Positions 18,694 to 36,322 of a DNA stretch of 64,000 bases are shown in pieces. The position numbers and the translations under genes were made by a program. Numbering within the stretch: the first letter of the stretch is position 1; every line of letters starts with the position of its first letter. This stretch comes from Eubacterium sp. (lineage in GTDB: Bacteria; Bacillota; Clostridia; Lachnospirales; Lachnospiraceae): contig JAFUPY010000004.1 in NCBI GenBank assembly GCA_017472565.1, positions 2,739 through 66,738 on the forward strand, read 5' to 3'. The notes beneath the pieces are model-generated. The model did no database searches. It was not told where the DNA came from and worked only from the letters and a program-made list of their open reading frames with translations.

Positions 18694-18708
18694 TGGCGCG
18701 AGATTTGC
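18694..18708 (+). promoter_or_regulatory. Sigma-54 promoter (BKACE gene)
   Basis: TGGCGCG-AGAT-TTGC with correct GG-N10-GC spacing. Confidence 0.8.
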
Positions 18709-18775
18709 GTACAGATACTGTGACTATCACAAATAGATAGGAATAATATGTTCAGTGAAAAAGGAGACAAACGAA

Positions 18776-19621
18776 ATGAAAAGAAAAACAATTATCACTG
18801 CAGCAGTAACTGGTGCATGGCCGAAAAAAGAGAACAATCCAAATGTACCGATGACGCCTTCTGAAATTGCAGATGATGTATATGCATGTTGGAAAGCTGG
18901 TGCCGCCATTGCGCATCTGCATATGCGTGATGAAAATGGCAACGGAACCATGAACACAGAAAAGTTCCGTGAGACAGTAAATCTGATTCGTACAAGATAT
19001 CCAGAGTGTGATATTATTCTGAATCTTACAACATCTGGAGATATTAATGCAGATGATGCTATTCGAATGGCACACATTAAAGAGTTAAAACCAGAAATGG
19101 CGTCTTATGACTGTGGTTCCATGAACTGGTTGCATAGCGGGGTGTTTTTAAATACACCACCATTTTTAGAAGAATGCGGATATCTGTTCCAGGAAACAAA
19201 TACCAAACCGGAAATCGAAGCCTTTGATCCAGGTATGATTGCAAATGCGGCCTACTATCTGAAAAAAGGCGTGTTAAAAGCACCACTTCATTTTCAGTTC
19301 TGTATGGGCTGCGCGAATGGTATTCCTGGTAACATGAAAAATCTTCTTTTTATGAAAGAGACTATGGATGCACTTTGTCCTGGCTCTACATGGTCCTGCT
19401 TTGGCGTTGGGCATAGCGCATTGGAAATGTTGTATGGTGCGGTTGCATTGGGCGGACATATTCGTGTAGGGATGGAAGATAATGTTATGTATGCAAAGGG
19501 GGTTCTTGCTGAAAGCAATGCGCAGTTTGTAGAAAGAGCAGCTCGTGTCATCAGAGAATATGGTAATGAAGTTGCTACACCAGCGGATGCTCGTGAAATA
19601 CTTGGATTAATAGAGAAATAA
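18776..19621 (+). CDS. Beta-keto acid cleavage enzyme (BKACE/DUF849, Kce family)
   Basis: IITAAVTGA, NPNVPMTPSEIA, AGAAIAHLHMR, PEIEAFD, GGHIRVGMEDN, ATPADAREILGL. Confidence 0.93.
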   Translation: MKRKTIITAAVTGAWPKKENNPNVPMTPSEIADDVYACWKAGAAIAHLHMRDENGNGTMNTEKFRETVNLIRTRYPECDIILNLTTSGDINADDAIRMAHIKELKPEMASYDCGSMNWLHSGVFLNTPPFLEECGYLFQETNTKPEIEAFDPGMIANAAYYLKKGVLKAPLHFQFCMGCANGIPGNMKNLLFMKETMDALCPGSTWSCFGVGHSALEMLYGAVALGGHIRVGMEDNVMYAKGVLAESNAQFVERAARVIREYGNEVATPADAREILGLIEK

Positions 19622-19717
19622 ACTAGTCAAGAAAAAATAATACAATTACAAAAACCTGTTTAGAAAAAGAGATATTATTCACTTTTAGTGGAAATATCTC
19701 TTTTTTGTTGCAAAGGC

Positions 19718-19735
19718 TGTTGTAGTTTTGCAACA
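19718..19735. promoter_or_regulatory. Putative enhancer site for the sigma-54 activator
   Basis: TGTTGTA-N4-TGCAACA pseudo-palindrome; related copies at 24141, 28925 and 35742. Confidence 0.6.
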
Positions 19736-19826
19736 ACATGTATAGCAGATTGAGATGATAGAGATATTTTTCCTCATACAAGAGAGAAAAATAGTAGAAA
19801 CATAAGACTTTTTCACTTGAAAAAAT

Positions 19827-19841
19827 TGGCACAGGTTTTGC
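19827..19841 (+). promoter_or_regulatory. Sigma-54 promoter (cyclase operon)
   Basis: TGGCACA-GGTT-TTGC. Confidence 0.85.
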
Positions 19842-19906
19842 GTACTATGAAGTTGACTATTAAAAATCCGTAAGGAAACAATTTTTTATGTAAAGGAGAT
19901 ACAAAC

Positions 19907-20725
19907 ATGGGAAAACAGATTTTAGTAGACTTATCACATCCATTTGGCAGAGGCAATCCATTATGGCCATCTAACGGAGACTTCCACATCGACAGAGTAC
20001 AGCATATGCCAATGCATTACAGATTATTACAGACATTTAATGACTTCCATATGCACAACAGTACGCATGCAGATTCCCCATCTCACGTTATTCCTGAAGG
20101 TGCGTTCACACATGAACTTCCACTGGAAAATTACTATGGGGAAGCAATCTGTCTTGATATCCCAAAAGGGAAATGGGAACTGATCACACCAGAAGAAATC
20201 GAAGAGGCTGCAGCAAAAATCGAAGGTGGATTAAAAGAAGGTGATTGGGTATGTATTTGTACAGGTATGCATAAACGTTGGGGCGAAAATGATGATTATT
20301 TCGCATACAGCCCAGGGCTTTCCATCGATGCTGCAAAATTCTTAGTAGAAAAGAAAGTAAAAGGTGTTGCCTTAGATATGCAGGCACTGGATCACATTCT
20401 TTATACATATGCTGCGCAGCACGGCCCTGGTCCATATGTGCCAAGAATTGTAGAAGAATACAGAAAACAGTTTGGACATGATCCATTAGAAGATTTCCCA
20501 GAATGGGAACCATGTCATGATATCCTTCTTAGAAACAACGTAATGGGTATCGAAAACCTTGGTGGTGACATTGAAAAAGTAAAAGGACAGAGATTCATGT
20601 TCTGTGCATTCCCGCTGAGATGGTACATGGGTGATGGCACAATCGTTCGTGCGGTTGCATTTATTGATGAAGATAAGATCAATAAAGACGTGCCAGATCG
20701 TGTTTACAAATACGGCGTATATTAA
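19907..20725 (+). CDS. Cyclase family metal-dependent hydrolase (kynurenine formamidase-like)
   Basis: DLSHP, HNSTHADSPSH metal motif, PGLS, IENL, PLR...GDGTIVRAVA. Confidence 0.88.
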   Translation: MGKQILVDLSHPFGRGNPLWPSNGDFHIDRVQHMPMHYRLLQTFNDFHMHNSTHADSPSHVIPEGAFTHELPLENYYGEAICLDIPKGKWELITPEEIEEAAAKIEGGLKEGDWVCICTGMHKRWGENDDYFAYSPGLSIDAAKFLVEKKVKGVALDMQALDHILYTYAAQHGPGPYVPRIVEEYRKQFGHDPLEDFPEWEPCHDILLRNNVMGIENLGGDIEKVKGQRFMFCAFPLRWYMGDGTIVRAVAFIDEDKINKDVPDRVYKYGVY

Positions 20726-20810
20726 GAACTACAGATAACTGCAGATAGTAATCACTTGCTGTCTGCAGTTGTACTTTATCACATATATGGCAAGAAATGA
20801 GGAAGCAAAA

Positions 20811-21755
20811 ATGGCTGATAAAAAAAGAGTAGCAGTGTTAGGTGCCGGCAAGATGGGTTTAGGTATCGCTTTGCTGTTCGCTATGAAAGGGCACGAAGTA
20901 AAAGTTATTTATGTATATGATGACAAGATCCGTTGCGATGCACGTGCTGTCATCAAAGCGAACTTACGTGTGTTGGTAGATAATGACGTTGTTACTGCAG
21001 AGGATGCGGATGCAGCAATAGATAGAGTTGGGTTTGTGGATGCAATCGAAGAAGTCGCAGATTTTGCAGATATTGTGTTTGAAGGAATCATTGAAGATCT
21101 TGCTATTAAACAGGACTATTTCGCAAAGATGGATGCAATCTTTCCAGTCACAACTATTTTAGCGACCAATACATCCGCTATCAGTATAACGGAAATCGCA
21201 GAAAAAAGTGTTCACAAAGAACGCATTATAGGAACTCATTACTGGGATCCTGCATACTTGATTCCACTGGTAGAAGTAATCAAAACAAAATATGTTTCAG
21301 AAGAAACCGTAAAAACAACTTATGATCTTTTGAAAGAAGCTGGTAAAAGACCAGTTATTGTAAAAAAAGATGTGCCAGGATTTTTGGCAAATCGTATGCA
21401 GCATGCATTGTTCAGAGAAGCATTATCTATCGTAGAGAACGATATTGCAGATCCTAAGGATGTGGATGATGCGATTAAATACGGATTTGGCATGCGACTT
21501 GGTGTTCGCGCACCAATCGAAGTTATGGATATGGGTGGCGTGGATCTTACTTATTGGATTCATGAATATCTATTCCCACACATCGAAAGCTCTACCACAC
21601 CATCCAGATTGTTGACAGAAAACATGGAAAAAGGCAATCTTGGAGCCAAAACCGGACAGGGCATTATGACCTGGTCAGAAGAAGATGTAAAAGAATCAAA
21701 TGAGAGATTGATTGAAGGTCTTATCAAGGTTGCAAAAGCACTGGATCGTATTTAG
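20811..21755 (+). CDS. 3-hydroxyacyl(-CoA) dehydrogenase family protein
   Basis: GAGKMGLGIA Rossmann motif, EDLAIK, TNTS, GTHYWDP...LVEV, GFLANR, LGAKTGQG. Confidence 0.9.
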   Translation: MADKKRVAVLGAGKMGLGIALLFAMKGHEVKVIYVYDDKIRCDARAVIKANLRVLVDNDVVTAEDADAAIDRVGFVDAIEEVADFADIVFEGIIEDLAIKQDYFAKMDAIFPVTTILATNTSAISITEIAEKSVHKERIIGTHYWDPAYLIPLVEVIKTKYVSEETVKTTYDLLKEAGKRPVIVKKDVPGFLANRMQHALFREALSIVENDIADPKDVDDAIKYGFGMRLGVRAPIEVMDMGGVDLTYWIHEYLFPHIESSTTPSRLLTENMEKGNLGAKTGQGIMTWSEEDVKESNERLIEGLIKVAKALDRI

Positions 21756-21781
21756 CACAGATAGAAGATTGGAGAAAAGAA

Positions 21782-22960
21782 ATGAGAAATGTAGTAATCG
21801 TAGCTGGTTGCCGTACACCAATAGGAACCATCGGTGGTCAGTTCAAATCCCTTACGTCCCTGGATTTATCAATTCCTGTAATGCAGAATCTGATTCAGCG
21901 TTCAGGCATTGATCCAGCTATGATCGAAGATGTTATCTGGGGCTGTAATTATCAAAGAACTTACAAAGAAAATAATCTTGCGCGTGTTGCTGCTGTGAAA
22001 GCAGGTCTTCCAGTAACAGTTCCAGGAATTACCATTCATAGAAACTGTACATCGTCTATGTCTGCGGTACAGATGGGATTTTATCAGATTAAATCCGGTG
22101 AAGCAGACTGTATTATGGCAGGTGGTGCAGATAGTATGAGTACTGCTCCACATATGGTATTTAATGCAAGATATGGTCAGAAATATGGACATATGGAAAT
22201 GCGAGACTCTATGTGGGATTCCTTGACGAATCTTGGTGTAGGGCCAGCAATGGGGATTACAGCTGAAAACGTGGCTGAAAAATATGATGTAACTCGTGAA
22301 CAGATGGATGCATATTCCCTTCGTTCACAGAAACGTGCAGTAGAAGCAATGGACGCAGGAAGATTTGAAGAAGAAATCATTCCAGTAGTCGTATCTTCCA
22401 GAAAAGGAGACATTGCCTATACGGTAGATGAATATCCAAAGAGGGATGCGACAATCGAAGGATTACAAAAGTTAAAACCTGCATTTAAAGAGGGCGGAAA
22501 AGTAACTGCAGGAAATGCCTCAGGTATGAATGACGCGTCTTCAGGTGTAATTTTGATGGAAGAAGAAAAAGCAAAAGAACTGGGTGTACCTATCTTGGCA
22601 AGAGTCGTAAGTGTTGCAACAACTGGTGTAGAGCCTGAATTAATGGGAATCGGCCCTATCAGCGCAACACAAAAGGCATTGGAAAAAGCAGGGCTGACCA
22701 TTGAGGATATAGACCTTTTTGAAATCAATGAAGCGTTTGCTTCTCAGTGTCTGGCTTGTCAGAAGGCGTTGGGAATTCCAGATGAAAAATTAAATGTAAA
22801 CGGTGGCGGAATTTCTCTTGGACATCCAGTAGGAGCGACTGGCTCTCGTATCATCATTTCCCTAATGTATGAAATGAGAAGACGAGGTAATCGCTATGGT
22901 GTTGCAACACTTTGTGCAGGCGGTGGCATGGGTACAGCTGTGATTATCGAAGCATGCTAA
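21782..22960 (+). CDS. Thiolase (acetyl-CoA C-acyltransferase)
   Basis: RTPIG, catalytic RNCTSS, TAGNASGMND, EINEAF, GHPVGATG, LCAGGGMG. Confidence 0.95.
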   Translation: MRNVVIVAGCRTPIGTIGGQFKSLTSLDLSIPVMQNLIQRSGIDPAMIEDVIWGCNYQRTYKENNLARVAAVKAGLPVTVPGITIHRNCTSSMSAVQMGFYQIKSGEADCIMAGGADSMSTAPHMVFNARYGQKYGHMEMRDSMWDSLTNLGVGPAMGITAENVAEKYDVTREQMDAYSLRSQKRAVEAMDAGRFEEEIIPVVVSSRKGDIAYTVDEYPKRDATIEGLQKLKPAFKEGGKVTAGNASGMNDASSGVILMEEEKAKELGVPILARVVSVATTGVEPELMGIGPISATQKALEKAGLTIEDIDLFEINEAFASQCLACQKALGIPDEKLNVNGGGISLGHPVGATGSRIIISLMYEMRRRGNRYGVATLCAGGGMGTAVIIEAC

Positions 22961-22976: not shown

Positions 22977-24143
22977 ATGAAAGATTTTGTATTTTCTTTC
23001 CCAACTAAAATTATCTTTGGAAAATGTGCGGAAGATAATATAGGACAGATGACTGCATTGTACGGAAAACATGCGTTGATATTGTATGGCAGCAGTCGTA
23101 TTGAAAAAAATGGATTACTGAACAAGATAACAAAGTTATTGGAAGATAATAATGTGTCTTATGAAACATATGGCGGTATTTGTGAGAATCCGTTGCTATC
23201 AGATGCACGGGCTGCTTGTGACATTGTAAAAGAAAAAAACATCGACTGTTTGATTGCTGTTGGCGGCGGAAGTGTAATAGATACCGCAAAGACGGTCGCT
23301 ATAGGGAGCTGTACAGAAACGCCTATTTGGGATTTCTTTGAAGGAAAGATGGTTCCAGAACGAGCGTTACCAATCGGTGTTGTGTTAACAATGGCAGCCA
23401 CAGCCAGCGAGGCAAACGGTGTAGCTGTGCTTACCAATGAGAAAGAAAAGAAAAAAACCATGCTGTTTTCACCGCATTTTTACCCAAAGTTTGCTTTGTT
23501 GAATCCGGAATTGACTTATACTGTACCAGCGAAACAGACCGCTATTGGAGCAGTTGATATCTTTGCTCATGCGTTTGAACGCTATTTTGATCTGGAGCAA
23601 AAAAATACACTGCGCAATCATCTTTGTGTATCGGTCATGAAAACGGTTCTGGAAGAACTTCCAAAAGTGCAGAATCAATTAGATGATTATGCAAGTCGCA
23701 GTCAATTGATGTGGTCTGCCACCATGGCACATAGTGACATGATTGGTGCAGGCGGAGTGTTTGTCTGTCATGAAATCTCGCATATCCTGACAGAGGAATA
23801 CGGGATTCCACATGGGCTTGCATTGGGAATTTTAATGCCGGCATGGTGCAAATATATGTTGCTGACAAATGCAGGTGATATCGCTAGGTTTGCAGAGGAT
23901 GTATTTGATGTGATGAAAGATGTAAAAACAGACCAGGCGATAGCACAAGAGGGGATTTCAAAAATGCAGCAATCTATATGTGACGCTGGTCTGCCGGTTA
24001 CGCTCAGAGAAGCAGGCATTATGTTTGTGAATAGTAAGATCCTTGCCCGTAAGGTACTGTCAGGGGATACGACCATTGGGAATTGCTTCCGAGCATTATC
24101 GCTTCATGATATAGAAGCCATCATTGAGCTTGCAAAAGGGTAG
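22977..24143 (+). CDS. Iron-containing alcohol dehydrogenase
   Basis: PTKIIFG, AVGGGSVIDTAK, DIFAHAFERY, HEISH...PHG metal ligands. Confidence 0.9.
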   Translation: MKDFVFSFPTKIIFGKCAEDNIGQMTALYGKHALILYGSSRIEKNGLLNKITKLLEDNNVSYETYGGICENPLLSDARAACDIVKEKNIDCLIAVGGGSVIDTAKTVAIGSCTETPIWDFFEGKMVPERALPIGVVLTMAATASEANGVAVLTNEKEKKKTMLFSPHFYPKFALLNPELTYTVPAKQTAIGAVDIFAHAFERYFDLEQKNTLRNHLCVSVMKTVLEELPKVQNQLDDYASRSQLMWSATMAHSDMIGAGGVFVCHEISHILTEEYGIPHGLALGILMPAWCKYMLLTNAGDIARFAEDVFDVMKDVKTDQAIAQEGISKMQQSICDAGLPVTLREAGIMFVNSKILARKVLSGDTTIGNCFRALSLHDIEAIIELAKG

Positions 24144-24179
24144 TGCAAGTATGCAACAAATAAATTCAAAATTGCAACA
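24141..24179. promoter_or_regulatory. Tandem putative enhancer sites upstream of the DUF362 operon
   Basis: Two TGCAACA half-sites (24152, 24173) 21 bp apart. Confidence 0.6.
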
Positions 24180-24246: not shown

Positions 24247-24261
24247 TGGCATGGCGATTGC
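24247..24261 (+). promoter_or_regulatory. Sigma-54 promoter (DUF362 operon)
   Basis: TGGCATG-GCGA-TTGC. Confidence 0.85.
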
Positions 24262-24313: not shown

Positions 24314-25603
24314 ATGTCTAAAAAATCAGTAGTAGCACTTGCGAAGGGACTGGACGTACAGGAAAATGTCACTCGCGTGTTTGATTTAATGGGTGGTGTT
24401 ACAAATGTTATTCGTAAAGGTTCCATCGTTGTATTAAAACCAAATGCAGGTCATGCGGAACCACCAGAAACTTCTGTTTGCACAAATCCAGAAGTAGTTC
24501 GTGCGGTTATCCGTGAAGTAAAAAAAGCAGAACCGAAAAAGATTATTATTGCAGAAGCAGCAGCGATTGGATGCGACACAGAAGAATGCTTCAGAGTAAG
24601 CGGAATTGAAGCAGTAGCGTTGGAGGAAGGCGTTGAATTACGCGACATCAAACGTGATAAGGAATTAGTAAACGTTGCTGTACGTGATTTTAAATCTAAC
24701 ATTGATCATGTGTTGCTGCCAAGATTCTTGATGGAGGCAGATCACTTAATCAATCTCCCAATTTTGAAAGCACATGCAAGTATGGTATTTTCAGGAGCAC
24801 TGAAAAATATCAAAGGTGTAGTTCAGGATAAAGTACATATGCAGATGCATCAGCACAATTTGACAATGGCGATGATGGATGTATGGAGTGCATGCCGCGC
24901 AGATATCAATATTATGGATGCAATGCGTGCGGCAAGTGGATATAGCCCACATATGCCAGTGCCAATTGAAACAAATATGATTCTTGGATCAAAAGATCCC
25001 GTTGCAATCGACCGCGTAGCTTGTGAAGTAACAGGTATTGACACAAGCTGTGTAGATTATTTTAAAGTGGCTGAAGAAACAGGACTTGGCAAATATGCAA
25101 TGGAAGATATTGAAGTTGTTGGTGATTCTATTGAAGACTGTTACAAGAAGATGTGGATTCCATACATTGGCGATATGAGCACTCGCTGGCCGGAATATGA
25201 TGTGAAATGTGAAGGCGCATGCTCCAGCTGCCAGGCACTTCTTGCAATCAACATGGAAGAATTAAAAGCGGTGGATGAGTATGATAAAAATGCAGGAATG
25301 ACAATTGTTATTGGACCAAAAAATGAGATTCCAAAAGACATTCCAGATGAAAAAATCGTACTTCATGGTAACTGTACAAGAAAATATCTCAAAGATCATC
25401 CAAACGCATTTTGGATTTTAGGATGTCCTCCAAACGAGCCAGCTCTTTATCTGACTGTTCAGAGAAAAGAAATCATTAATGGTATGGGCGATCAGGAAGA
25501 AGAAATCATCCGTCCTTGTATGGCAAGAGATGCAGCCGTGTGGCGTGACTATGTATTCAAAGCAGCAGATAAGTATTATGAGGAACATCCGGAGGATAGA
25601 TAA
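24314..25603 (+). CDS. DUF362 domain iron-sulfur protein
   Basis: VVLKPN, TNPEVV, ADHLINLPILKAH...SGALKN.KG, DPVAID; C-terminal CSSC...GNC...GCPP cluster ligands. Confidence 0.88.
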   Translation: MSKKSVVALAKGLDVQENVTRVFDLMGGVTNVIRKGSIVVLKPNAGHAEPPETSVCTNPEVVRAVIREVKKAEPKKIIIAEAAAIGCDTEECFRVSGIEAVALEEGVELRDIKRDKELVNVAVRDFKSNIDHVLLPRFLMEADHLINLPILKAHASMVFSGALKNIKGVVQDKVHMQMHQHNLTMAMMDVWSACRADINIMDAMRAASGYSPHMPVPIETNMILGSKDPVAIDRVACEVTGIDTSCVDYFKVAEETGLGKYAMEDIEVVGDSIEDCYKKMWIPYIGDMSTRWPEYDVKCEGACSSCQALLAINMEELKAVDEYDKNAGMTIVIGPKNEIPKDIPDEKIVLHGNCTRKYLKDHPNAFWILGCPPNEPALYLTVQRKEIINGMGDQEEEIIRPCMARDAAVWRDYVFKAADKYYEEHPEDR

Positions 25604-25884
25604 TGGATGGATACGTATATGTTGAAATGGATGAAAAATGCAAAAGTCTATTAAATACAATTTTTACAGACGAGTTCATGCAGGAAAACACAAATTTTAC
25701 AAACTTTGAAGGATTCCAGTATTCCAGTGCAGTTATTACCAATTGGAGGGCTGAACATATGGTGTATGCCCAGCTTTTGATGGATAATTTTGTAAAGGAA
25801 AGCACACGCTTTTCTTCATGGGAAGAAATGGTAATGATTGCTACAGATGAAAAGTTTGGCAAGTTTATGGCAAATCCTGTATAA
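25603..25884 (+). CDS. Small hypothetical protein, 93 aa
   Basis: TAATG overlap with the DUF362 stop and a GGAGG RBS; internal duplication FMQENTNF / FVKESTRF. Confidence 0.8.
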   Translation: MDGYVYVEMDEKCKSLLNTIFTDEFMQENTNFTNFEGFQYSSAVITNWRAEHMVYAQLLMDNFVKESTRFSSWEEMVMIATDEKFGKFMANPV

Positions 25885-25905
25885 TCGTTGAAAAGGAGAA
25901 TGAAA

Positions 25906-27204
25906 ATGGGAAATAATACACAGAAAATTGAAAGTGAAAATATGAAAATGAATTTCTCCAAAGGCTGGGGAATCATCATTTACTGTGCAGCAATGTTTTT
26001 CTTCCTGATTGGTTTTTCCATCGATGGATTAAATATTATTGCACCAGCATTTGCTGAAAAAACAGGTATCGAATATGCAACTGTTCTTAGTATGTCAACA
26101 GTTGCAGGATTAGTGGGTATCATTGCATATATTATTATTTCTAGGGTTGTTATCAAAGCGGGAGCACGTATGGTTTCTGGTATTTGCTTAATTGCAGCTA
26201 GTTTATCTTATGTTGCATTGGGACATTCTAATACATTAGTTGCTTATGCGATTTGTTTAACATTAGTAACATGTTTCATCAATGGCGCCGCATACATTGC
26301 AGGTGGTGCACTTGTAGCACAGTGGTTCCCTAAGAAAAAAGGTCTCGCAAATGGTTTTACAACTATGGGACATAACAGTGGATCCGCATTCTATGTACCA
26401 TTGATTGGTTTCTTATTAGGCGCATTAGGATTTGCAAATGGTATGACAGTAACTGCTATTGCAGGCGCAATCCTTGGTGTGATAGGTTTGATTTTTGTTC
26501 GTAACACTCCACAGGAAATGGGTATGCTGCCAGATAACGTTACACAGGAAGTATATGACAGAGAGTACTTTGAAGGTGACTCTGATGAAAAGGGTGGATG
26601 GACAGTTGGTAAGCTGTTGAAAACAAAAGAAATGTGGCTTTGCGCATTAGTAGTAGGTATTAACCAGTTAGTTACAACAGGTGTTATGTCTCAGCTTGTA
26701 GTTCGTAACACACAGATTGGTTTTGAACAGTCCAAAGCAGTTGCTTTAATGACAGTTGCGGCTTTGATCGGTCTTGTTGGTTCTTATATCTTTGGTGCAC
26801 TGGATCAGAAACTCGGCGTAAAGAAGGCAATTTTAATCTTCTTGGCATGGTATGCAGTAGCATTGTTAGTTAACTGTTCCAACACAATGATTGGTGTTTA
26901 TATCTCCGTATTTATGATTGGTATCTCTGTAGGTGCGGCTGCTAACTTTATCGTATCATTACCGGCATCTGTTTTCGGGCGACATGGATTTGCCACTGTT
27001 AACTCTGTCTTCTTCCCATTAATGCAGGTTGTATTAATGATGAATTATCTTGTAAATGCAGCAGCATTAAAACTTACAGGCAGCTTAAGAGGTGCATATT
27101 TCGTATTTGTTGGCTTGCTGATTGTGAATATGATTCTGATTGCTGTAATAAACACACGTAAATACAACAAAGATTACCAGAAAGAAGATAGCTTAAGAGC
27201 TTAA
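25906..27204 (+). CDS. MFS transporter
   Basis: About 12 hydrophobic segments, WFPKKKGLANG, GALDQKLGVK motif A-like loop, VFGRHGF. Confidence 0.9.
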   Translation: MGNNTQKIESENMKMNFSKGWGIIIYCAAMFFFLIGFSIDGLNIIAPAFAEKTGIEYATVLSMSTVAGLVGIIAYIIISRVVIKAGARMVSGICLIAASLSYVALGHSNTLVAYAICLTLVTCFINGAAYIAGGALVAQWFPKKKGLANGFTTMGHNSGSAFYVPLIGFLLGALGFANGMTVTAIAGAILGVIGLIFVRNTPQEMGMLPDNVTQEVYDREYFEGDSDEKGGWTVGKLLKTKEMWLCALVVGINQLVTTGVMSQLVVRNTQIGFEQSKAVALMTVAALIGLVGSYIFGALDQKLGVKKAILIFLAWYAVALLVNCSNTMIGVYISVFMIGISVGAAANFIVSLPASVFGRHGFATVNSVFFPLMQVVLMMNYLVNAAALKLTGSLRGAYFVFVGLLIVNMILIAVINTRKYNKDYQKEDSLRA

Positions 27205-28924: not shown

Positions 28925-28963
28925 TATTTCTGATTTGCAACAGATAAAAACTAAACTGCAACA
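28925..28963. promoter_or_regulatory. Tandem putative enhancer sites upstream of the lar operon
   Basis: Two TGCAACA half-sites (28936, 28957) 21 bp apart, at the same offsets from the promoter as at 24152/24173. Confidence 0.62.
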
Positions 28964-29030: not shown

Positions 29031-29045
29031 TGGCATGAAAATTGC
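29031..29045 (+). promoter_or_regulatory. Sigma-54 promoter (lar operon)
   Basis: TGGCATG-AAAA-TTGC. Confidence 0.85.
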
Positions 29046-29104: not shown

Positions 29105-29857
29105 ATGGATGTAGCATATTTGGAAGAATTGTTAGGAAAAGTATCCCGACAGGAAACAAGTACTGTTGAGGCATTAGAAATATTGAAACATCTGCCATAT
29201 GAAGATATTGGCTGTGCCAATATTGATCAGCATAGAAATATTCGAACAGGTCAGGCAGAAGTGATTTTTGGACAGGGAAAAACACCAGAACAGATTGCTA
29301 AGATTATTTCCTGCATGAAAAAGGGGAATGAACGCATTTTGGTAACAAGAGCATCAAATGAGGCTTATGAAGCAGTTTTGGAAGTGGCGCCAGAGGCCGT
29401 ATATGATAAATTGGCAAGATTGATTATGGTTGGAGAAAAACCAGTACCAGTAGATACAAAAGGACCAATTGCAGTCCTGACGGCTGGTACCGCAGATATC
29501 CCTGTTGCGGAAGAAGCGGCTTTGTGTGCTGAGTACTTCGGCAATCGTGTTGATCGTATCTATGACGTAGGTGTGGCGGGAATTCATCGTTTGTTTGATC
29601 GTATTGACCGTATTCGCCAGGCAGAGGTCATCATTGTTATTGCCGGCATGGAAGGTGCGTTAGCCAGTGTGGTAGGTGGGCTTGTAAATGTACCAGTCAT
29701 CGCTGTACCTACCAGCGTAGGATATGGAGCCAGCTTTGGTGGTGTGGCAGCTTTATTGGCTATGTTGAACTGCTGTGCAAATGGAGTCGGAGTTGTAAAT
29801 ATCGATAACGGATATGGAGCAGCTTGTCTGGCATCCAAGATTCACATTGGAAAATAA
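29105..29857 (+). CDS. larB: Nickel-pincer cofactor biosynthesis protein LarB
   Basis: DQHR...EVIFGQGKT, AGTADIPVAEEA, DVGVAGIHR, AGMEGAL, PTSVGYGA, MLNCCANG, VNIDNGYGA. Confidence 0.96.
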   Translation: MDVAYLEELLGKVSRQETSTVEALEILKHLPYEDIGCANIDQHRNIRTGQAEVIFGQGKTPEQIAKIISCMKKGNERILVTRASNEAYEAVLEVAPEAVYDKLARLIMVGEKPVPVDTKGPIAVLTAGTADIPVAEEAALCAEYFGNRVDRIYDVGVAGIHRLFDRIDRIRQAEVIIVIAGMEGALASVVGGLVNVPVIAVPTSVGYGASFGGVAALLAMLNCCANGVGVVNIDNGYGAACLASKIHIGK

Positions 29858-29899
29858 ATAGATTTATAGTAGGGAACGAAGCAGAAAGGAGTGGAAACT

Positions 29900-30262
29900 A
29901 TGTGTGAAAAATTCTATGACCATGAGCATTCCCATGTACACACTCATAATATATGTGAACATCAGCATACGCATGAGCATCATTCTCATGAACATGGACA
30001 TTCTCACCCAAATGCCAAAGCGGTATCCAATCGCCTGGCAAAAGCAATCGGCCACCTGGAAGCAGTAAAACGAATGGTAGATAGAGGAGAAGACTGTGCC
30101 CAGGTATTGACTCAGCTTGCAGCGGTAAAATCTGCAATTAACAATGCGGGAAAGGTGGTTTTAATGGATCATCTCAATCATTGTATCGTTGAGGCTGTGG
30201 AAGAGAATGATTTTCAAAAGATTGAACAGTTTGGTTCAGCAATTAAGCAGTTTGTTAAATAA
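29900..30262 (+). CDS. CsoR/RcnR-family metal sensor with His-rich N-terminus (InrS-like)
   Basis: NRLAKAIGHL...DCAQVLTQLAAV...DHLNHC; N-terminal His tract ending HGHSHP. Confidence 0.9.
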   Translation: MCEKFYDHEHSHVHTHNICEHQHTHEHHSHEHGHSHPNAKAVSNRLAKAIGHLEAVKRMVDRGEDCAQVLTQLAAVKSAINNAGKVVLMDHLNHCIVEAVEENDFQKIEQFGSAIKQFVK

Positions 30263-30280: not shown

Positions 30281-31123
30281 ATGAAAGAAAAAATTTTATA
30301 TTTAGAATGCAAAACCGGTGCAGCCGGAGATATGTTAATGGCAGCACTTTATGATGTAATGAATGAGGAACAAAAAGCAGTTTTTCTGGAGACAATGAAT
30401 GGCTTAGTTGAATCCGTAACGGTTGCTGCGGAGAAAAAAGTGTCTCGTGGAATTGCAGGCGTACATATGAAGGTTACTGTGCAGGGTGAAGAGGAAGGAG
30501 AACACCTTGACGGTCATGACCATGAGCATCACCATCATCATGAACATGGCCACGAACATCACCATCGCCATGAGCATAATCATTGCCATGAGCATACTCA
30601 CTTCCATCATGTGCATGTGAGCTATAAAGACCTTTTAGCACATATTATGGAACTTCCTGTCAGCAACCAGGTAAAACAGAATGCATCAACAGTATATCAG
30701 CTTCTTGGAATGGCAGAAAGTAAAGTTCATGGAACGGATATTGAGCAAATCCATTTTCATGAAGTGGGAAGTCTGGATGCTCTAGTAGACATCGTAGGAT
30801 GTGCCCTGGCAATGGAAATGATTGCACCGGATAAGATTTATGCAGCACCAGTCTGTGTCGGCAATGGAACGGTCAGATGTGCCCATGGTGTGCTTCCAGT
30901 TCCAGCACCTGCTACCGCAGAACTGATCAAAGGAATGCCGACCTATAGCAGTAAGTTTGATGGAGAATTATTGACTCCTACTGGTGCAGCTGTGTTAAAG
31001 CACTATGTGCAAAATTACACAAAAGAAATTAGCATGGAAATCAAAGACATTGGCTATGGGATGGGAACCAAAGAATTTGAACAGCCAAGCTTTGTAAGAG
31101 CTTTTGTGGGCTGGACTTCCTAA
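30281..31123 (+). CDS. larC: LarC N-terminal part (LarC1) with His-rich Ni-binding tract
   Basis: GAAGDM, poly-His, AESKVHG...HFHEVG..D..VDI, CAHGVLPVPAPAT, ELLTPTGAA, GYGMG. Confidence 0.95.
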   Translation: MKEKILYLECKTGAAGDMLMAALYDVMNEEQKAVFLETMNGLVESVTVAAEKKVSRGIAGVHMKVTVQGEEEGEHLDGHDHEHHHHHEHGHEHHHRHEHNHCHEHTHFHHVHVSYKDLLAHIMELPVSNQVKQNASTVYQLLGMAESKVHGTDIEQIHFHEVGSLDALVDIVGCALAMEMIAPDKIYAAPVCVGNGTVRCAHGVLPVPAPATAELIKGMPTYSSKFDGELLTPTGAAVLKHYVQNYTKEISMEIKDIGYGMGTKEFEQPSFVRAFVGWTS

Positions 31124-31136
31124 AGGAGGGTGCCCG

Positions 31137-31958
31137 ATGACAGATGCTAAATTAGAATTTAAATTAAGAAAATTAAAATCCTACATAAAAGAACTGGGAA
31201 GCGTAGCGGTTGCATTTTCAGCTGGTGTGGATTCCACCTTTTTGCTGAAGGTGGCTCATGAAGTGTTAGGCGACAAGGTTGTTGCTGTGACCGCCAATAC
31301 AAGTTCCTTTACAGAACAGGAATTGCAGGAGGCCACCCTTTTTTGTCAAAAATATGGAATTGTCCATGTGATCTGTGAAATTGATAACCTGAGTTTGCCG
31401 GAGTTTGCAAACAATGCTGTGGATCGTTGTTACCATTGTAAGAAAATGATTTTCAATGAGGTAAAAACATACGCAATCACACATGGTTTTAATGCTGTTG
31501 TTGAGGGTGCAAATAAGGATGATGAAGCTGATTTTAGACCAGGTCATCGTGCAATAGAAGAACTAAAGATTGAGAGTCCACTGCGAATGGCTAGTTTAAC
31601 AAAAGAAGAAATACGGACACTGGCCCGAACTATGGGGCTTGAAGTGTGGAAGAAACCTTCCTGCGCCTGCTTGGCATCCAGATTTGTGTATGGAGAATCG
31701 ATTACAAGAAAAAAGTTAAAAATGGTTGAATGTGCAGAACAGTATCTATCGGAGATTGGATGCACACAATATCGAGTGAGAATGCATGGAATGATGGCTC
31801 GTATTGAAATCATGCCAGAAGATTTTTCACTGTTATTGCAGGAAGATACTCGAATACAGCTAATTGCAGATATGCACAAATTGGGCTTCCAATACGTATC
31901 CTTAGATTTGATGGGGTTTCGTACAGGAAGTATGAATGAAGCGTTACTCATAAAGTAA
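31137..31958 (+). CDS. larE: ATP-dependent sulfur transferase LarE
   Basis: PP-loop AFSAGVDST, RCYHCKK, DFRPG, KPSCACLASR, RVRMH, GFRTGSMN. Confidence 0.96.
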   Translation: MTDAKLEFKLRKLKSYIKELGSVAVAFSAGVDSTFLLKVAHEVLGDKVVAVTANTSSFTEQELQEATLFCQKYGIVHVICEIDNLSLPEFANNAVDRCYHCKKMIFNEVKTYAITHGFNAVVEGANKDDEADFRPGHRAIEELKIESPLRMASLTKEEIRTLARTMGLEVWKKPSCACLASRFVYGESITRKKLKMVECAEQYLSEIGCTQYRVRMHGMMARIEIMPEDFSLLLQEDTRIQLIADMHKLGFQYVSLDLMGFRTGSMNEALLIK

Positions 31959-31997
31959 AAGAAGCTCTTTAGGATTGGCTTGGAGAAAAGTGAAACT

Positions 31998-32444
31998 ATG
32001 AAGGATATCATTATAAAGCTAGAAAGCAATATAGACGACAGTACAGGAGAAATGCTGGGTTATGTGATGGACTTGCTCTTGAAGGCAGGGGCATGCGATG
32101 TTTACTATACACCGATCTATATGAAAAAGAATCGACCAGCCTGGCAGTTGAATGTGCTTTGCAAAGAGGAAAATATTGCAGCGTTAGAAGAGATCATTAT
32201 TTTGAATACCACTACTATTGGAATTCGCCGATGTGTCATGCAGCGTACTATATGTGACAGAGAGATACAGGATGTTACTACTCCATACGGAATGGCAAAA
32301 GTAAAGGTATGTTTGTTTCATGAGCATCTGCGCATATATCCAGAATATGAAAGTGTGATTGCTATTTGTCAAAAAGAAAACTTATCATATTCGGAAGTGT
32401 ATCAAATGATTGTTAATACATATAAAAAAATACTACAACCATAA
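31998..32444 (+). CDS. larC: LarC C-terminal part (LarC2)
   Basis: LESNIDD, GACDVYYTPIYMKKNRP, TTTIGIR, PEYES. Confidence 0.93.
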   Translation: MKDIIIKLESNIDDSTGEMLGYVMDLLLKAGACDVYYTPIYMKKNRPAWQLNVLCKEENIAALEEIIILNTTTIGIRRCVMQRTICDREIQDVTTPYGMAKVKVCLFHEHLRIYPEYESVIAICQKENLSYSEVYQMIVNTYKKILQP

Positions 32445-32460
32445 ATACTCTCCCCCAAAA

Positions 32461-32497
32461 AATAGAAATGATTCCAAACAATGGAATCATTTCTATT
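32461..32497. terminator. Bidirectional terminator between larC2 and rpoN
   Basis: AATAGAAATGATTCCA / TGGAATCATTTCTATT inverted repeat. Confidence 0.75.
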
Positions 32498-32525
32498 GTA
32501 AGCAACAATATTTGTTCTATTAATA

Positions 32526-33908
32526 CTACAACGCGGATAAGCTTTTTCGACCGCTCTTATCAGGGATTCCCAGTTCCAATCTGTATTTGGTAACTGTTCT
32601 TCGGGAAATGTGAATGCCCAGTATTTCTAATTGTTCGGAAATTTTATTATCGCTGTAAGGTTTGTTTTTATTTTCTTGTGAAACAATACTTTTTATAGCT
32701 TCTTTGGCTTTGTCTGGTGTTTGGGACTCGCCGGTGGCTGTAAATTGTTTGTTTAATGAAGCGGTTAAAAAGAAATTCAGTGGAAACAACCCCCATGTGC
32801 ACTGTAAATATTTACCCTTCATTGCCCTGCTGATGGTAGATTCATGCAGATCCAACCTGTCTGCCAGGTCTACCAGACGCAGTGGTTTTTTTGATAATGG
32901 CCCATAAAGAAAGAAATCGTGTTGTTCTTCCACAATTGCGTGAGCCACGCGTGACAGGGTAGAAATACGCTGTGTAATGCAGTTCTGTACCCATTCTGCT
33001 TGAGATACTTTCTTTTTCAGGTAATCATAGACTTCTTTGTCTGGAGCATCTTCCATTAAGCTTTTATAATACGCATTGATGTTAAAGGTAGGATACGAGG
33101 ATTCATTAACGAGAATTTCGAATTTTTCTTCCAGTTTTACGACAACAATATCAGGCACAATATAGCGCATCTGTTCCCGGTTGCTAAAGGAACTGCCTGG
33201 TTTTGGATTCATCTGTTTGATTTCATTGCATGCTTCGGTAACTTCATCTAAGGAAACTCCCAGCTTTCTGGCAATAATAGATAAGTGGTTCTTTCCGACG
33301 TCACTTAAATAATGCTTGATAATCTCTTCGGTGACAGGAGAGTAGGCTGGCTTTCTATAAAGCTGTAGCAACAGACATTCAGAAAGATTGCGTGCTCCAA
33401 CGCCAATTGGTTCCAGAGACTGAATTGTTTGCAATATACGCTCTGCGTGTTCATAGGAAATATGTAACTGGCTGGCAATATCAGACAGATCTTCTGTTAA
33501 ATATCCTTTGGAATCTAAAAGAAGGATCATATATTTTAACGCTTTTTGGTCGAAGTCAGAAAACTCTGTAGTAAGTAGCTGAGAAAATAAATATTCGCTG
33601 AGAATTTCTTCCGTTTCATAGGTCCGATGCCATTGTTCTTGAGAATAGTCCGCTTCGCGTTCCTGCTTGTAATAGACTCTATTCTGATAATCGCTGGATT
33701 CCAGCCACTGTAGTTTGCGCTGTATTTCGTCATTGATTGGTTCAGAGGTGGTACCTTTGTCAAAATCAATATCAATAACAGGATTATCTAAGGCAAGATT
33801 TTCAATATAAGATTCTAACTCTATAGAATTCATTTGCAAAATATCTGTGGATTGTAGCATTCGTTGTGACAGCGTTTGCTTTTGAACTAATTCCATTGAA
33901 AGATTCAT
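32526..33908 (-). CDS. rpoN: RNA polymerase sigma-54 factor
   Basis: Q/L-rich region I, EPIGVGARNLSECLLLQL, LHESTISRA HTH, RpoN box SRRTVTKYR. Confidence 0.96.
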   Translation of the reverse strand: MNLSMELVQKQTLSQRMLQSTDILQMNSIELESYIENLALDNPVIDIDFDKGTTSEPINDEIQRKLQWLESSDYQNRVYYKQEREADYSQEQWHRTYETEEILSEYLFSQLLTTEFSDFDQKALKYMILLLDSKGYLTEDLSDIASQLHISYEHAERILQTIQSLEPIGVGARNLSECLLLQLYRKPAYSPVTEEIIKHYLSDVGKNHLSIIARKLGVSLDEVTEACNEIKQMNPKPGSSFSNREQMRYIVPDIVVVKLEEKFEILVNESSYPTFNINAYYKSLMEDAPDKEVYDYLKKKVSQAEWVQNCITQRISTLSRVAHAIVEEQHDFFLYGPLSKKPLRLVDLADRLDLHESTISRAMKGKYLQCTWGLFPLNFFLTASLNKQFTATGESQTPDKAKEAIKSIVSQENKNKPYSDNKISEQLEILGIHISRRTVTKYRLELGIPDKSGRKSLSAL

Positions 33909-34012
33909 AAAAACACCCCGTTTTGCTTCTGTTAATCAAATGGCAGAAGCTCTTTTTTATTGTATCAAATAATGTGTGCAAAAACTATGTGTTAATCCTG
34001 AAAATAATACCC

Positions 34013-34049
34013 AAATCAGAGAAAGCCTGCATTTGACTTTCTCTGATTT
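34013..34049 (-). terminator. Hairpin after abfD
   Basis: AAATCAGAGAAAG...CTTTCTCTGATTT inverted repeat. Confidence 0.65.
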
Positions 34050-34084
34050 TCTAAGAGGTATATGGGAGTAAAAAGGGGTACTAT

Positions 34085-35536
34085 TTATTCATGGATCTTG
34101 GCAATTGTTTTTGCCAATTCTTTTTTCATTTCAAGATTGCCCTGTCTGGAAATCATGATTCTCTGTGCCTGTGGAGAACCTGCTCCGTGCATAGATTCTG
34201 TACGATATCCAACAGCAGCTGTTCCAAGTGTGAGATTTTCAATTAATCTCATGATCTTTAATCTGTTTTCAGTACTTATGTTTGCAACACCTTTGAAATA
34301 TTTATCAATCACTGGTCCGATTACTGGATCTTTAAAATCTTTCTCAGATGGAGCTGTTACCATAAGCCCGCCAGCAAGATCTTCTGCTAAACGTGCAATT
34401 TCGTATGGATAGCGTGTTACGTTTTGTTTACATACGTTAGCGAGTAGCAGGTTAATCAGATAGTTACCGGATGCTGTTTTGCTTCCTTCTGCAGAACATG
34501 CAATACCACAGCAGAATAAAGTTTCGTTCAAGTGTGTCATTTCAATTAATTTATCTTTTACATGAGATGCTTTCTGAGCACCATTGTAATCAGCAGCAAC
34601 GGCAGCAGCGCCAATCAATACATCACCAACACCAACTTTACATCCGCCGTAAGACTGACGATGATAGCCTGCAAATCTTTCGACAAGCATTCCGGAGAAA
34701 TCATATTCGCCGTCCATGAAGATTCTGTCATTTGGAACGAATACGTCATCAAATACAACCAGTGCTTCCATGCCACCAAATTCAGAATTTCCCACATCTA
34801 AGTCACCGCCCTCCAATTTTCTTGTGTCGCAGGACTGACGGCCGATAATCATGAAAATGCCCTCTGCGTCAACTGGAACAGCGAAGGAAACAGCATAGTC
34901 TTTATCTGCTTCGCCCATTGCGATGGTTGGCATAACAATAACTTCGTGAGAGTTAACGATACCGGTTTGGTGTGCTTTTGCGCCTCTTACCACAATACCA
35001 TCCTCTCTACGTTCTACAACGTGAAGGAACAGATCAGGATCTTCCTGTGCGTGAGGCGCTTTGGAACGATCTCCCTTTGGGTCTGTCATTGCACCATCGA
35101 TAGTAAGATCGTTATTCTGACAATAGGTTAAAAATGTTTTAAAGTTATCGTGGTAGTGTGTGCCATGAGCCTGATCGCATTCATATGTAGTGCTGTATAC
35201 TGCGTTGAAAGCGTCCATACCTACACAGCGTTGGAAGCATGCAGCGGTTTTCTGACCACAAAGACGCTGCATCTTTACTTTTTTCATAAGGTCATCTGTG
35301 CTCTGATGAATGTGAGTAAAACGGTTAATTTTTTCTCCTGTAATGTGAGAAGTTGTAACCATCAGATCTTCATGTTCAGGCATCTGTGCAAGATCATAAG
35401 TCATTTTAACGGAGTTCAATGATGGACGAAGAATTGGGTGATCTACTGGATTCTCAATTTTTTCTCCAAACATGTATACCTGCATATTCATTTTTCGAAT
35501 ACTTTCAACGTATTCTTCACCTGTCATAAGTGCCAT
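34085..35536 (-). CDS. abfD: 4-hydroxybutyryl-CoA dehydratase / vinylacetyl-CoA isomerase
   Basis: CFQRCVGMDA, GAMTDPKGDR, GAKAHQTG, YHRQSYGGCKVG ([4Fe-4S] ligands), ESMHGAGSPQAQ; closely resembles clostridial AbfD. Confidence 0.95.
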   Translation of the reverse strand: MALMTGEEYVESIRKMNMQVYMFGEKIENPVDHPILRPSLNSVKMTYDLAQMPEHEDLMVTTSHITGEKINRFTHIHQSTDDLMKKVKMQRLCGQKTAACFQRCVGMDAFNAVYSTTYECDQAHGTHYHDNFKTFLTYCQNNDLTIDGAMTDPKGDRSKAPHAQEDPDLFLHVVERREDGIVVRGAKAHQTGIVNSHEVIVMPTIAMGEADKDYAVSFAVPVDAEGIFMIIGRQSCDTRKLEGGDLDVGNSEFGGMEALVVFDDVFVPNDRIFMDGEYDFSGMLVERFAGYHRQSYGGCKVGVGDVLIGAAAVAADYNGAQKASHVKDKLIEMTHLNETLFCCGIACSAEGSKTASGNYLINLLLANVCKQNVTRYPYEIARLAEDLAGGLMVTAPSEKDFKDPVIGPVIDKYFKGVANISTENRLKIMRLIENLTLGTAAVGYRTESMHGAGSPQAQRIMISRQGNLEMKKELAKTIAKIHE

Positions 35537-35637
35537 AGTGTAATTCCCTTTCTTACTTGTTTAAGATTTATTGAATGTATATATTTACAGAAAATCTGAA
35601 ACAAAATATAGATTTCTGCGTTATACCATAATATAAA

Positions 35638-35652
35638 GCAAAAACCGTGCCA
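35638..35652 (-). promoter_or_regulatory. Sigma-54 promoter (abfD)
   Basis: Minus strand TGGCACG-GTTT-TTGC, perfect consensus. Confidence 0.9.
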
Positions 35653-35741
35653 AAAAAATATTTAAAAAAAGAGGCCAAAGCATGCTTTTTTATAGAAAAA
35701 ACGCTGTAGAATTTCATAAAAGAAACGTATTCATGAATAAA

Positions 35742-35759
35742 TGTTTCCATTTTGCAACA
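35742..35759. promoter_or_regulatory. Putative enhancer site between divergent sigma-54 promoters
   Basis: TGTTTCC-N4-TGCAACA. Confidence 0.55.
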
Positions 35760-35806
35760 AAAGGGATGCAAAACCGAAGAGATAAAGAGAATAGAGCGCA
35801 TATAAA

Positions 35807-35821
35807 TGGCATGATTTTTGC
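35807..35821 (+). promoter_or_regulatory. Sigma-54 promoter (NifU-like gene)
   Basis: TGGCATG-ATTT-TTGC. Confidence 0.85.
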
Positions 35822-35885
35822 GTGTTATTATAATTAACAATAGTCAGTTAGGCAGAAGTATTTTTAAACGTGGAGGAGAAAGCAT

Positions 35886-36185
35886 ATGGAAGAAATAGCA
35901 TTGGTAAAACAGATAGAAATAGTTTTGGAAGAGAAAGTCAGACCAATCTTGTTGGAGCATGATGGAAATGTACAATTAATTTCGGTAGAAGATGGAATTT
36001 GCCGGGTGAAGTTAGAAGGGAAGTGTGCAGGGTGTCCATCAGCCAACTTGACAAAGGAAGAGATTATCGGAAAAGAAATCATGGAGACAATTCCTGCCAT
36101 AAAAGATGTTATATTAGTGCAGGAAGTAAGTACAGAATTGTTGGATTTCGCAAAGAAAATACTGAGGTATAAGGTAACGCAATGA
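35886..36185 (+). CDS. NifU/Nfu-type Fe-S carrier protein
   Basis: VRPILLEHDGNVQL...LEGKCAGCPSA. Confidence 0.92.
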   Translation: MEEIALVKQIEIVLEEKVRPILLEHDGNVQLISVEDGICRVKLEGKCAGCPSANLTKEEIIGKEIMETIPAIKDVILVQEVSTELLDFAKKILRYKVTQ

Positions 36186-36322
36186 AAGTTGGAGTTAAGT
36201 ATTGTGGCGGATGCCAATCGGCGTGTGTTGATACAAAACATTTAATAGCAATAAAGACAATTTTTGCTTTGAAGAATAAAGAAGAATTTGACGAGATAAA
36301 AAATTGTTTAAGAAGATTTTAG
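36182..36322 (+). CDS. 46-aa Cys-rich ORF coupled to the nifU-like gene, possibly an internally deleted remnant
   Basis: ATGA overlap; MKVGVKYCGGCQSACVDTKHLIAIKTIFALKNKEEFDEIKNCLRRF. Confidence 0.55.
   Translation: MKVGVKYCGGCQSACVDTKHLIAIKTIFALKNKEEFDEIKNCLRRF

Follow-up and report, generated by a model that had tools for sequence, protein, structure and literature searches.

Positions 18694..36322 of a 64,000-nt stretch of Eubacterium sp. DNA (contig JAFUPY010000004.1), here called the window, hold an island in which catabolic genes are combined with the genes for a cofactor, nickel-pincer nucleotide (NPN). The window belongs to a 2.1-Mb assembly with a completeness of 68.6%. The island was singled out by an earlier, model-made reading of this DNA, which used only the letters and a list of open reading frames (ORFs) and is referred to hereafter as the sequence-only reading. 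Here, we describe the genes and promoters of the island, the predicted structure of its DUF362 protein and the related loci of other genomes. The known part of the island corresponds to a phloroglucinol-type pathway. The new part is its entry enzyme, the DUF362 protein, which is a strong candidate for a new class of pincer/Fe-S enzyme.

Genes and promoters of the island

On the plus strand, the island starts with a BKACE gene (18776..19621), followed by a run of genes for a cyclase-family hydrolase (19907..20725), a 3-hydroxyacyl dehydrogenase of the 3HCDH family (20811..21755), a thiolase (21782..22960) and an iron-containing alcohol dehydrogenase, Fe-ADH (22977..24143). The next run consists of the gene for the 429-aa DUF362 protein (24314..25603), that of a conserved 93-aa protein (25603..25884), whose start overlaps the DUF362 stop, and that of an MFS transporter (25888..27204). 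A PAS-domain sigma-54 enhancer-binding activator is encoded on the minus strand (27318..28835); its GAFSGA loop replaces the usual GAFTGA. The lar genes, all above their model cut-offs, form a third run on the plus strand: larB (29105..29857; 295.5 bits, cut-off 175), a His-rich metal sensor of the CsoR/RcnR family (29891..30262), larC1, also His-rich (30281..31123; 200.6 bits, cut-off 90), larE (31137..31958; 314.8 bits, cut-off 150) and larC2 (31980..32444; 148.6 bits, cut-off 50). The sole rpoN (sigma-54) gene found in the assembly (32526..33908) and abfD, for 4-hydroxybutyryl-CoA dehydratase (34085..35536), lie on the minus strand, and a NifU/NfuA-like Fe-S carrier (35886..36185) is encoded on the plus strand. 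The starts of BKACE (18776), 3HCDH (20811), larB (29105) and larE (31137) are likely assignments.

These genes were assigned with family models, except AbfD, which was assigned by a close, full-length match to the Clostridium aminobutyricum enzyme 1U8V (825 bits, residues 3-481). All the genes named by the sequence-only reading are present, each in the family that it gave; the activator, rpoN and the 93-aa ORF come in addition to its list. The 93-aa protein has no match in Pfam, and the ESM Atlas gave unnamed clusters only.

The sequence-only reading also held that lar and catabolic genes share promoter and enhancer motifs. Six sites with the strict sigma-54 pattern TGGC[AG][CT]-N5-TTGC are found in the 1,683 bp of intergenic DNA of the island, compared with an average of 0.005 and at most 1 in 2,000 block shuffles; the whole assembly has 40 such sites, these six included. 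They lie before BKACE (18694..18708, plus strand), before the cyclase-3HCDH-thiolase-Fe-ADH run (19827..19841, plus), before the DUF362-small ORF-MFS run (24247..24261, plus), before larB (29031..29045, plus), before abfD (35638..35652, minus) and before the nifU-like gene (35807..35821, plus). The heptamer TGCAACA occurs eight times in the same intergenic DNA (shuffles: mean 0.27, maximum 3), including an inverted pair that is a likely activator binding site (19706..19735), two further pairs (24152..24179 and 28936..28963, both plus) and a copy between the divergent abfD and nifU promoters (35753..35759, plus). The BKACE promoter has the sigma-54 site, but its intergenic region lacks the heptamer. 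The sigma-54 site recurs upstream of 9 of 13 larB orthologues and of 19 of 27 cyclase orthologues. Since the motif counts are far above those of the shuffles and the sites recur upstream of orthologues, the co-regulation of lar and catabolic genes is well supported at the level of sequence. A search of sequencing runs listed no RNA run, a result that is silent on expression.

Predicted structure of the DUF362 protein

An AlphaFold2 model of the DUF362 protein of the window (pLDDT 87) was searched with Foldseek and VIA-align. The predicted structure can be described as composed of two parts, an N-domain with the fold of LarA (about residues 11-279) and a C-domain (about residues 292-395). Among the Foldseek matches listed, all 19 with E<=0.001 are members of the LarA family (E 4e-7 to 5e-5). 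In VIA-align, five LarA-family chains gave Z scores of 18.0, 17.4, 16.4, 16.2 and 14.6, compared with 6.1 for the next, unrelated chain, and the superpositions on these LarA-family chains had a root mean square deviation of 2.8-3.5 over 211-227 residues. The model therefore has the N-terminal, NPN-binding fold of LarA. At the level of sequence, the Lar_N family (PF09861) gave no match to the protein and an E-value of 1.4e-4, under the cut-off, for its orthologue in another genome (G020); a sequence search of the Protein Data Bank (PDB) gave nothing meaningful. A local profile alignment places H154 on His174 of LarA and K164 on Lys184, but it is weak (hhalign probability 1.1%, 45 columns), so that the link between DUF362 and LarA rests on the predicted structure and the motif. 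The sequence-only reading saw no larA homologue in the window. No scanned protein there matches Lar_N, and the statement is true at this level of sequence families only, because the N-domain of DUF362 has the LarA fold.

In LarA, Lys184 is the thioamide tether of the cofactor, His174 an acid/base and His200 a nickel ligand (PMC7583248, PMC12611868). Of the 150 best distant matches to DUF362, the 117 with a length of 350-470 aa were compared. In these, K164 and K152 are both kept in 117/117, H179 in 116 and H154 in 100, while the cysteines C303, C306, C354 and C371 are kept in 112, 113, 115 and 115, respectively. H179 lies at K164+15 and His200 of LarA at Lys184+16, an equivalence by spacing only. 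The C-terminal substrate domain of LarA is replaced in DUF362 by residues 292-395, which resemble hydrogenase small subunits. When this C-domain was folded alone, its ten best VIA matches were all hydrogenase small subunit/NuoB chains (Z 6.4-7.6), with which it shares the cysteine pattern CxxC...G-x-C...GCPP. Unlike the small subunit of [NiFe]-hydrogenase, however, it is fused behind a LarA-like domain, and no large subunit is encoded in the island. As modelled, this architecture points to a pincer site in electronic contact with an Fe-S cluster, and to net redox chemistry with one acid/base rather than racemisation.

With the racemases and epimerases of the LarA superfamily (PMC7583248, PMC11770544), DUF362 shares the N-domain fold, the equivalents of His174, Lys184 and probably His200, and the Pfam clan CL0471, in which it serves only as an outgroup in the available part of PMC11770544. 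The superfamily differs in that its members match Lar_N above the cut-off, have His108, and carry the C-terminal substrate domain in place of the four-cysteine domain. Other DUF362 proteins from genomes of the window's family (25 listed) keep the same K-x-H...K-N...H motif, with two ferredoxin-type motifs instead of the C-domain. Common proteins of this kind from two other DUF362 subfamilies, several of them encoded directly beside larC, are found at loci L097-L126 and are further candidate NPN clients.

Within the searched literature, which covers only a minority of subscription papers, neither a pincer role of DUF362 nor this operon is described. Judged by title or abstract start, none of the DUF362 papers found deals with DUF362 function, and DUF362 is not mentioned in the main text of PMC13524815 or in the 12 of its 17 supplementary files that were searched. 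PMC11170127 and PMC10930907 provide host context only.

Lar genes and pincer clients

The larB, larC and larE genes of the island are the only ones found in the assembly. LarE has the cysteines C109/C112 and C187/C189, that is, the CxxC-C motif that marks the [4Fe-4S]-dependent type (PMC9283937). The limitation of NPN clients to the LarA family, as assumed in the sequence-only reading, is outdated. NphT, an NPN-dependent aldo-keto reductase (AKR), is a client outside LarA (PMC13524815), and the ornithine cyclodeaminase NPAD is cited as pincer-dependent in the same paper. In about 15% of the genomes analysed in PMC11796402, NPN is made without a LarA client. Like DUF362 as proposed here, NphT and the cyclodeaminase are pincer clients that were identified beside larBCE by means of a His/Lys motif, with intermolecular hydride transfer (PMC13524815); unlike DUF362, they have unrelated folds and no Fe-S relay. 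The island has no NphT-type AKR with a His/Lys motif beside larBCE, nor any other AKR among its proteins, and the rest of the assembly gave two weak partial AKR matches only.

The search of the whole genome for larA, which the sequence-only reading had proposed, gave a single Lar_N match, a 424-aa protein on contig C101. It scores 630 bits against NF052594, the NPN-dependent hexonate epimerase model (cut-off 500). At about 14600-19100 of C101, gnd, a HAD hydrolase, a mannonate oxidoreductase and this group-18 NPN hexonate epimerase form one run. To judge from its sequence, the epimerase is an NPN client of the conventional kind, whose cofactor supply would rest on the sigma-54-controlled lar genes of the island. 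A LarA-superfamily gene is therefore present in the genome, but no strict sigma-54 site or TGCAACA heptamer lies directly upstream of its operon; it is thus not the larA under a shared enhancer motif that the sequence-only reading had named as a refutation.

Occurrence in other genomes

A genome scan gave 44 loci with a member of this DUF362 subfamily, of which 43 were used and one, a fragment, was left out; many are cut by contig ends. The genomes that have them, here called carriers, span more than one family, many are incomplete, and the counts ignore kinship. The small protein is found in 42 of the 43 loci, thiolase in 37, 3HCDH in 33, the cyclase in 29, Fe-ADH in 26, the activator in 25, MFS in 24, abfD in 15, nifU in 12 and BKACE in 10. 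At least one lar gene is present in 18, so that lar and catabolic genes do recur together, as the sequence-only reading expected. Some islands (L003, L004, L005, L016, L038) have larB, the sensor and larC1 only, or larB and the sensor, with the other lar genes elsewhere; such partial sets may serve to raise cofactor or nickel supply on induction.

Carrier genomes have larC in 41 of 43 cases, compared with 144 of 250 genomes of the window's family, and larE was found in 5/5 carriers checked. Lar_N matches under 1e-30 are found in 17/43 carriers only. In the remaining 26, five weak matches, all confined to the shared motif, were obtained with a profile that had the C101 protein among its members, and the two that were confirmed are DUF362 proteins; 24 of the 43 carriers thus have larC and no strong LarA-family match. 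Across the 250 family genomes, larC and DUF362 occur together in 112, larC alone in 32, DUF362 alone in 35 and neither in 71. Among the 199 Lar_N-negative genomes, the corresponding numbers are 77, 28, 27 and 67; that is, 105 of the 144 larC-positive genomes lack Lar_N, and 77 of those 105 have DUF362. In addition, larC lies within 10 kb of 12 of the 150 DUF362 matches listed. The sequence-only reading placed the NPN client inside the island. This is probably so, and we consider the DUF362 protein, a distant LarA-fold protein and thus not unrelated to LarA, the likely client.

Relation to the phloroglucinol pathway

The sequence-only reading did not recognise this gene set as a described pathway. 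It can, however, be recognised as a set of paralogues of the pathway by which Clostridium scatologenes degrades phloroglucinol anaerobically; that pathway comprises PGR, the cyclase-family DPGC, the 3HCDH-family TfD, the BKACE-family TAL and a thiolase (PMC10470551). The canonical cluster was recovered from five genomes, and its reductase matches PDB 5G4K. This assembly has it as well, on contig C117 (61574-65421), in the order PGR-TfD-DPGC-TAL and with identities to the canonical genes (for TfD and DPGC, those of Eubacterium ramulus) of 85% (PGR), 68% (TfD), 91% (DPGC) and 86% (TAL), which rules out that the island is itself the canonical cluster.

The BKACE of the island is 89% identical to the TAL of C117 and nests among canonical TALs in a tree. 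A lysine or carnitine BKACE route was rejected, since this protein is below the Kce cut-off and groups with TAL, and the Kce-like gene of the genome is on contig C34. The island cyclase has 34-39% identity to DPGC; it keeps Trp20, has Ser in place of Tyr22 and lacks two insertions that DPGC has. The island 3HCDH has 42% identity to TfD. These two proteins are thus paralogues and not orthologues of DPGC and TfD, while a TAL orthologue, a thiolase, an MFS transporter and a regulator are shared with the C. scatologenes pathway. The island differs from that pathway by the lack of PGR and by the presence of DUF362 and its small partner, of larBCE, AbfD, NifU and Fe-ADH, and of control by sigma-54. 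A PGR orthologue was found in none of the 43 loci, the island included (best short-chain dehydrogenase 30%). Elsewhere in the genome, PGR is present in 26 of the 43 carriers and was not found in 17, many of which are incomplete.

Canonical DPGC is found in 28 of the 43 carriers compared with 13 of 250 family genomes, and the DPGC paralogue in 39 of the 43 compared with 2 of 250 (one genome is common to both sets); the island is therefore a sister pathway concentrated in phloroglucinol degraders. The carriers include Eubacterium ramulus, Catenibacillus scindens and relatives of Flavonifractor, which are known flavonoid degraders. Three phloretin-hydrolase-like genes (C31, C102, C119) are likewise found in the assembly, as is, on C31, another BKACE with a TRAP transporter and a CoA-transferase. 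Together with the canonical cluster on C117, these genes make the organism look like a polyphenol specialist. We are fairly confident that the island follows a phloroglucinol-like logic.

A second type of operon

In the genus around one carrier genome (L032), the DUF362 subfamily is found at >=65% in 9 of 24 genomes, with two copies in five. The second copy lies in a different operon, here called type II and seen at six loci (L143, L144, L146, L149, L150, L151), with genes for an MFS transporter, DUF362, the small protein, 3HCDH, a second MFS transporter, a CoA-transferase, a thiolase, crotonase-fold proteins and BKACE. AbfD is absent. For the crotonase-fold proteins, which take the place of the cyclase, the best matches are beta-diketone hydrolase and 6-oxocamphor hydrolase; enzymes of this kind act by cleaving cyclic 1,3-diones. 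An environmental DUF362 homologue with 48% identity has the same hydrolase, 3HCDH and BKACE as neighbours. A stop interrupts the DUF362 gene at L150. In the genome of L148, TAL and abfD are reduced to fragments in the island of the first type (9254-9849), which suggests from its sequence that this island is decaying; the type II operon there looks intact. In two unrelated operon types, the partner of DUF362 is a cyclic-diketone hydrolase, of one fold or the other, and never PGR; for this reason, DUF362 is placed in the slot of the reductase.

Public records name both DUF362 paralogues from Flavonifractor plautii. The operon of the second paralogue encodes DUF362, two beta-diketone hydrolases, 3HCDH, BKACE, thiolase and CoA-transferase, without AbfD. 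In F. plautii, the enzymes that convert the diarylpropanol derived from catechin are unassigned according to the available part of PMC13515148. Carbon counting of this diarylpropanol through BKACE and thiolase gives 4-hydroxy-5-arylvaleryl-CoA, which matches the reported F. plautii products. The type II operon is thus a candidate, on its gene content, for catechin A-ring cleavage in F. plautii.

Proposed pathway

We tentatively read the island as a second, sigma-54-promoter-bearing ring-cleavage pathway of the phloroglucinol type, in which DUF362 would be an NPN/[4Fe-4S] reductase that converts a substituted ring to a cyclic 1,3-dione. As a whole, this reading is plausible but stops a little short of probable; for its central step, ring reduction by DUF362, the case is slightly better and we lean towards it. 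The closest described reaction is that of the ferredoxin-dependent resorcinol reductase of fermenting clostridia, which uses low-potential electrons to convert a meta-dihydroxy ring to a cyclic 1,3-dione that is then cleaved hydrolytically (PMC10470551); the likeness to DUF362 is by description only.

The roles of LarB, LarE, LarC and NifU-like carriers used in this proposal are established. The MFS transporter would import a phenol that the PAS activator would sense. LarB, the [4Fe-4S]-dependent LarE and LarC1/C2 would make NPN, and the NifU-like protein would supply clusters to LarE, AbfD and DUF362. In DUF362, Lys164 would hold NPN as the tether and His179 would bind the nickel; the enzyme would receive electrons via its C-terminal cluster and deliver hydride to the keto tautomer of the ring, with His154 as the single acid/base. 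By homology, retro-Claisen hydrolysis by the DPGC paralogue would then open the dione. Oxidation of the 3-hydroxy acid would fall to the TfD paralogue, and TAL would remove acetoacetate and the thiolase acetyl-CoA. The leftover 4-hydroxyacyl-CoA would be dehydrated by AbfD. With 1,2,3,5-tetrahydroxybenzene as the starting ring, the route would pass through 4-hydroxy-3-oxobutyryl-CoA to 4-hydroxybutyryl-CoA via ordinary butyrate enzymes.

That the substrate is exactly this compound is improbable. To judge from the sequences, a ring with one small additional group is most likely; a small substituent is favoured because TAL and AbfD are near-canonical. Hydroxyhydroquinone is another option, while plain resorcinol is less likely, since neither an acyl-CoA dehydrogenase nor a crotonase, by which the 3-hydroxy acid could be reached, is encoded in the island. 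The 4-hydroxybutyryl-/crotonyl-CoA end point of the sequence-only reading is plausible, although it was derived from AbfD alone, which is present in only 15/43 loci. Beside the island at loci L010, L012, L023, L024, L030, L037, L042, L072 and L147, a module recurs that includes a PTS-type regulator, an FGGY kinase, a class II aldolase, a 2-hydroxyacid dehydrogenase, a second Fe-ADH, a Zn-ADH, and old-yellow-enzyme or DAPG-hydrolase-like genes. Loci with sugar kinase, aldolase and phloretin-hydrolase-like genes give a hint of C-glycosylated rings.

Composition and neighbours of the island

The G+C content of the island (0.394 compared with 0.418/0.426) is only slightly lower, a difference that makes no case for recent transfer. 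A FecCD-type metal ABC importer (36345-39217, minus strand), which may supply nickel or iron, adjoins the island and was not seen as a recurring neighbour. Further on, at 39517-39843 (plus strand), a small winged-helix ORF has a short tandem repeat of GAEK units and probably forms the end of a gene for an ATP-dependent helicase/RecG-like regulator.

Alternative explanations

The tentative reading of DUF362 as an NPN-dependent ring reductase has to be weighed against several others. DUF362 could bind NPN and yet oxidise or epimerise a hydroxyl on an open-chain or cyclitol intermediate, with electrons passing to its own cluster; PGR would then reduce the ring in trans, or the substrate would be a non-aromatic compound. 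This explanation, the closest to the idea of the sequence-only reading, draws on the same fold, residue and co-occurrence evidence and on the 26 carriers with PGR; several loci have sugar ABC transporters, FGGY kinase, class II aldolase and polyol dehydrogenases, and one distant locus combines 3HCDH and a phloretin-hydrolase-like gene with no recognised ring hydrolase. We nevertheless hold it to be unlikely on balance, because the loss of the His108 equivalent argues against two-base racemisation, cyclic-diketone hydrolases are the partner in two unrelated operon types, no locus has its own PGR, and PGR gave no match in 17 carriers, even if many of these are incomplete.

In a quite different explanation, DUF362 is an Fe-S enzyme without NPN, and the lar genes of the island, as the sole NPN supply of the genome, serve the hexonate epimerase of C101. 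The NF052594 score of that protein and the absence of other larB, larC and larE genes from the assembly fit this, as do the DUF362 genes in 35 genomes without larB and larC. However, the C101 operon lacks the motifs that larB orthologues keep in 9/13 loci, 24 carriers have larC with no strong LarA match, lar genes adjoin DUF362 in several distinct arrangements, and in some carriers the island has an additional larB or larC1 besides a separate set elsewhere; on these grounds we judge the explanation decidedly improbable. Fe-ADH or 3HCDH could also be the client, with the pincer cofactor in place of NAD, for which NphT and the ornithine cyclodeaminase are precedents (PMC13524815). This is very improbable, since both proteins keep ordinary nucleotide-binding motifs (GGGS and the metal-ligand His/Asp in Fe-ADH, GxGxxG in 3HCDH), are less constant than DUF362 (26/43 and 33/43) and belong to different subfamilies between loci, and the island has no AKR.

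Several observations weigh against an NPN-dependent, ring-reducing DUF362 itself. At the level of the protein, the profile alignment to LarA is weak, as described above, and H179 is probably the counterpart of His200, a match that depends on spacing. No histidine between residues 44 and 154 is conserved in the 117 homologues, where E/D81 is the conserved polar residue, so that the second catalytic histidine of LarA, His108, has no conserved counterpart; D72, R75 and K298 of LarA are not kept either, with K42-P-N44 apparently at the place expected for the DxxR loop. The C-domain has no Foldseek match at E<=0.001, no Pfam match and only VIA Z scores below 8. At the level of genomes, 35 of the 147 DUF362-positive family genomes lack both larC and larB, with the K/H motif kept in several, and Bacteroides thetaiotaomicron, a control, has DUF362 without larC; a similar rate of Lar_N genomes without larC (12/51) softens this objection but does not remove it. 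Moreover, larC is common in the family (58%), related genomes are not independent and more than one family is represented among the carriers. Additional DUF362 proteins are encoded by most carriers, and the LarA-family protein on C101 gives this genome a bona fide client. PGR elsewhere in the genome, here on C117, could act in trans, and AbfD and BKACE (15/43 and 10/43) are not core to the loci.

Significance

A wider, joint reading would take DUF362 as a large, overlooked class of pincer/Fe-S oxidoreductases, of which this subfamily dearomatises substituted phloroglucinol A-rings in gut bacteria that degrade flavonoids, and the F. plautii operon as the missing route from the diarylpropanol to 4-hydroxy-5-arylvalerate/phenyl-gamma-valerolactones. 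The pincer hydride would be wired to one-electron carriers, as hydrogenase wires its nickel to the proximal cluster, and in F. plautii reduction of the ring would be followed by ring opening, oxidation, and BKACE and thiolase steps to 4-hydroxy-5-arylvaleryl-CoA. All these parts together are rather doubtful. A client that combines the LarA fold with an Fe-S domain would take pincer chemistry beyond racemisation and sugar disproportionation into electron-coupled redox; it would also provide a function for a very large, functionally unassigned family and link nickel to the breakdown of polyphenols in the gut. The island lends itself to a direct test: the protein and its lysine can be named, it has cofactor genes of its own, and E. 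ramulus, C. scindens and F. plautii are cultured hosts.

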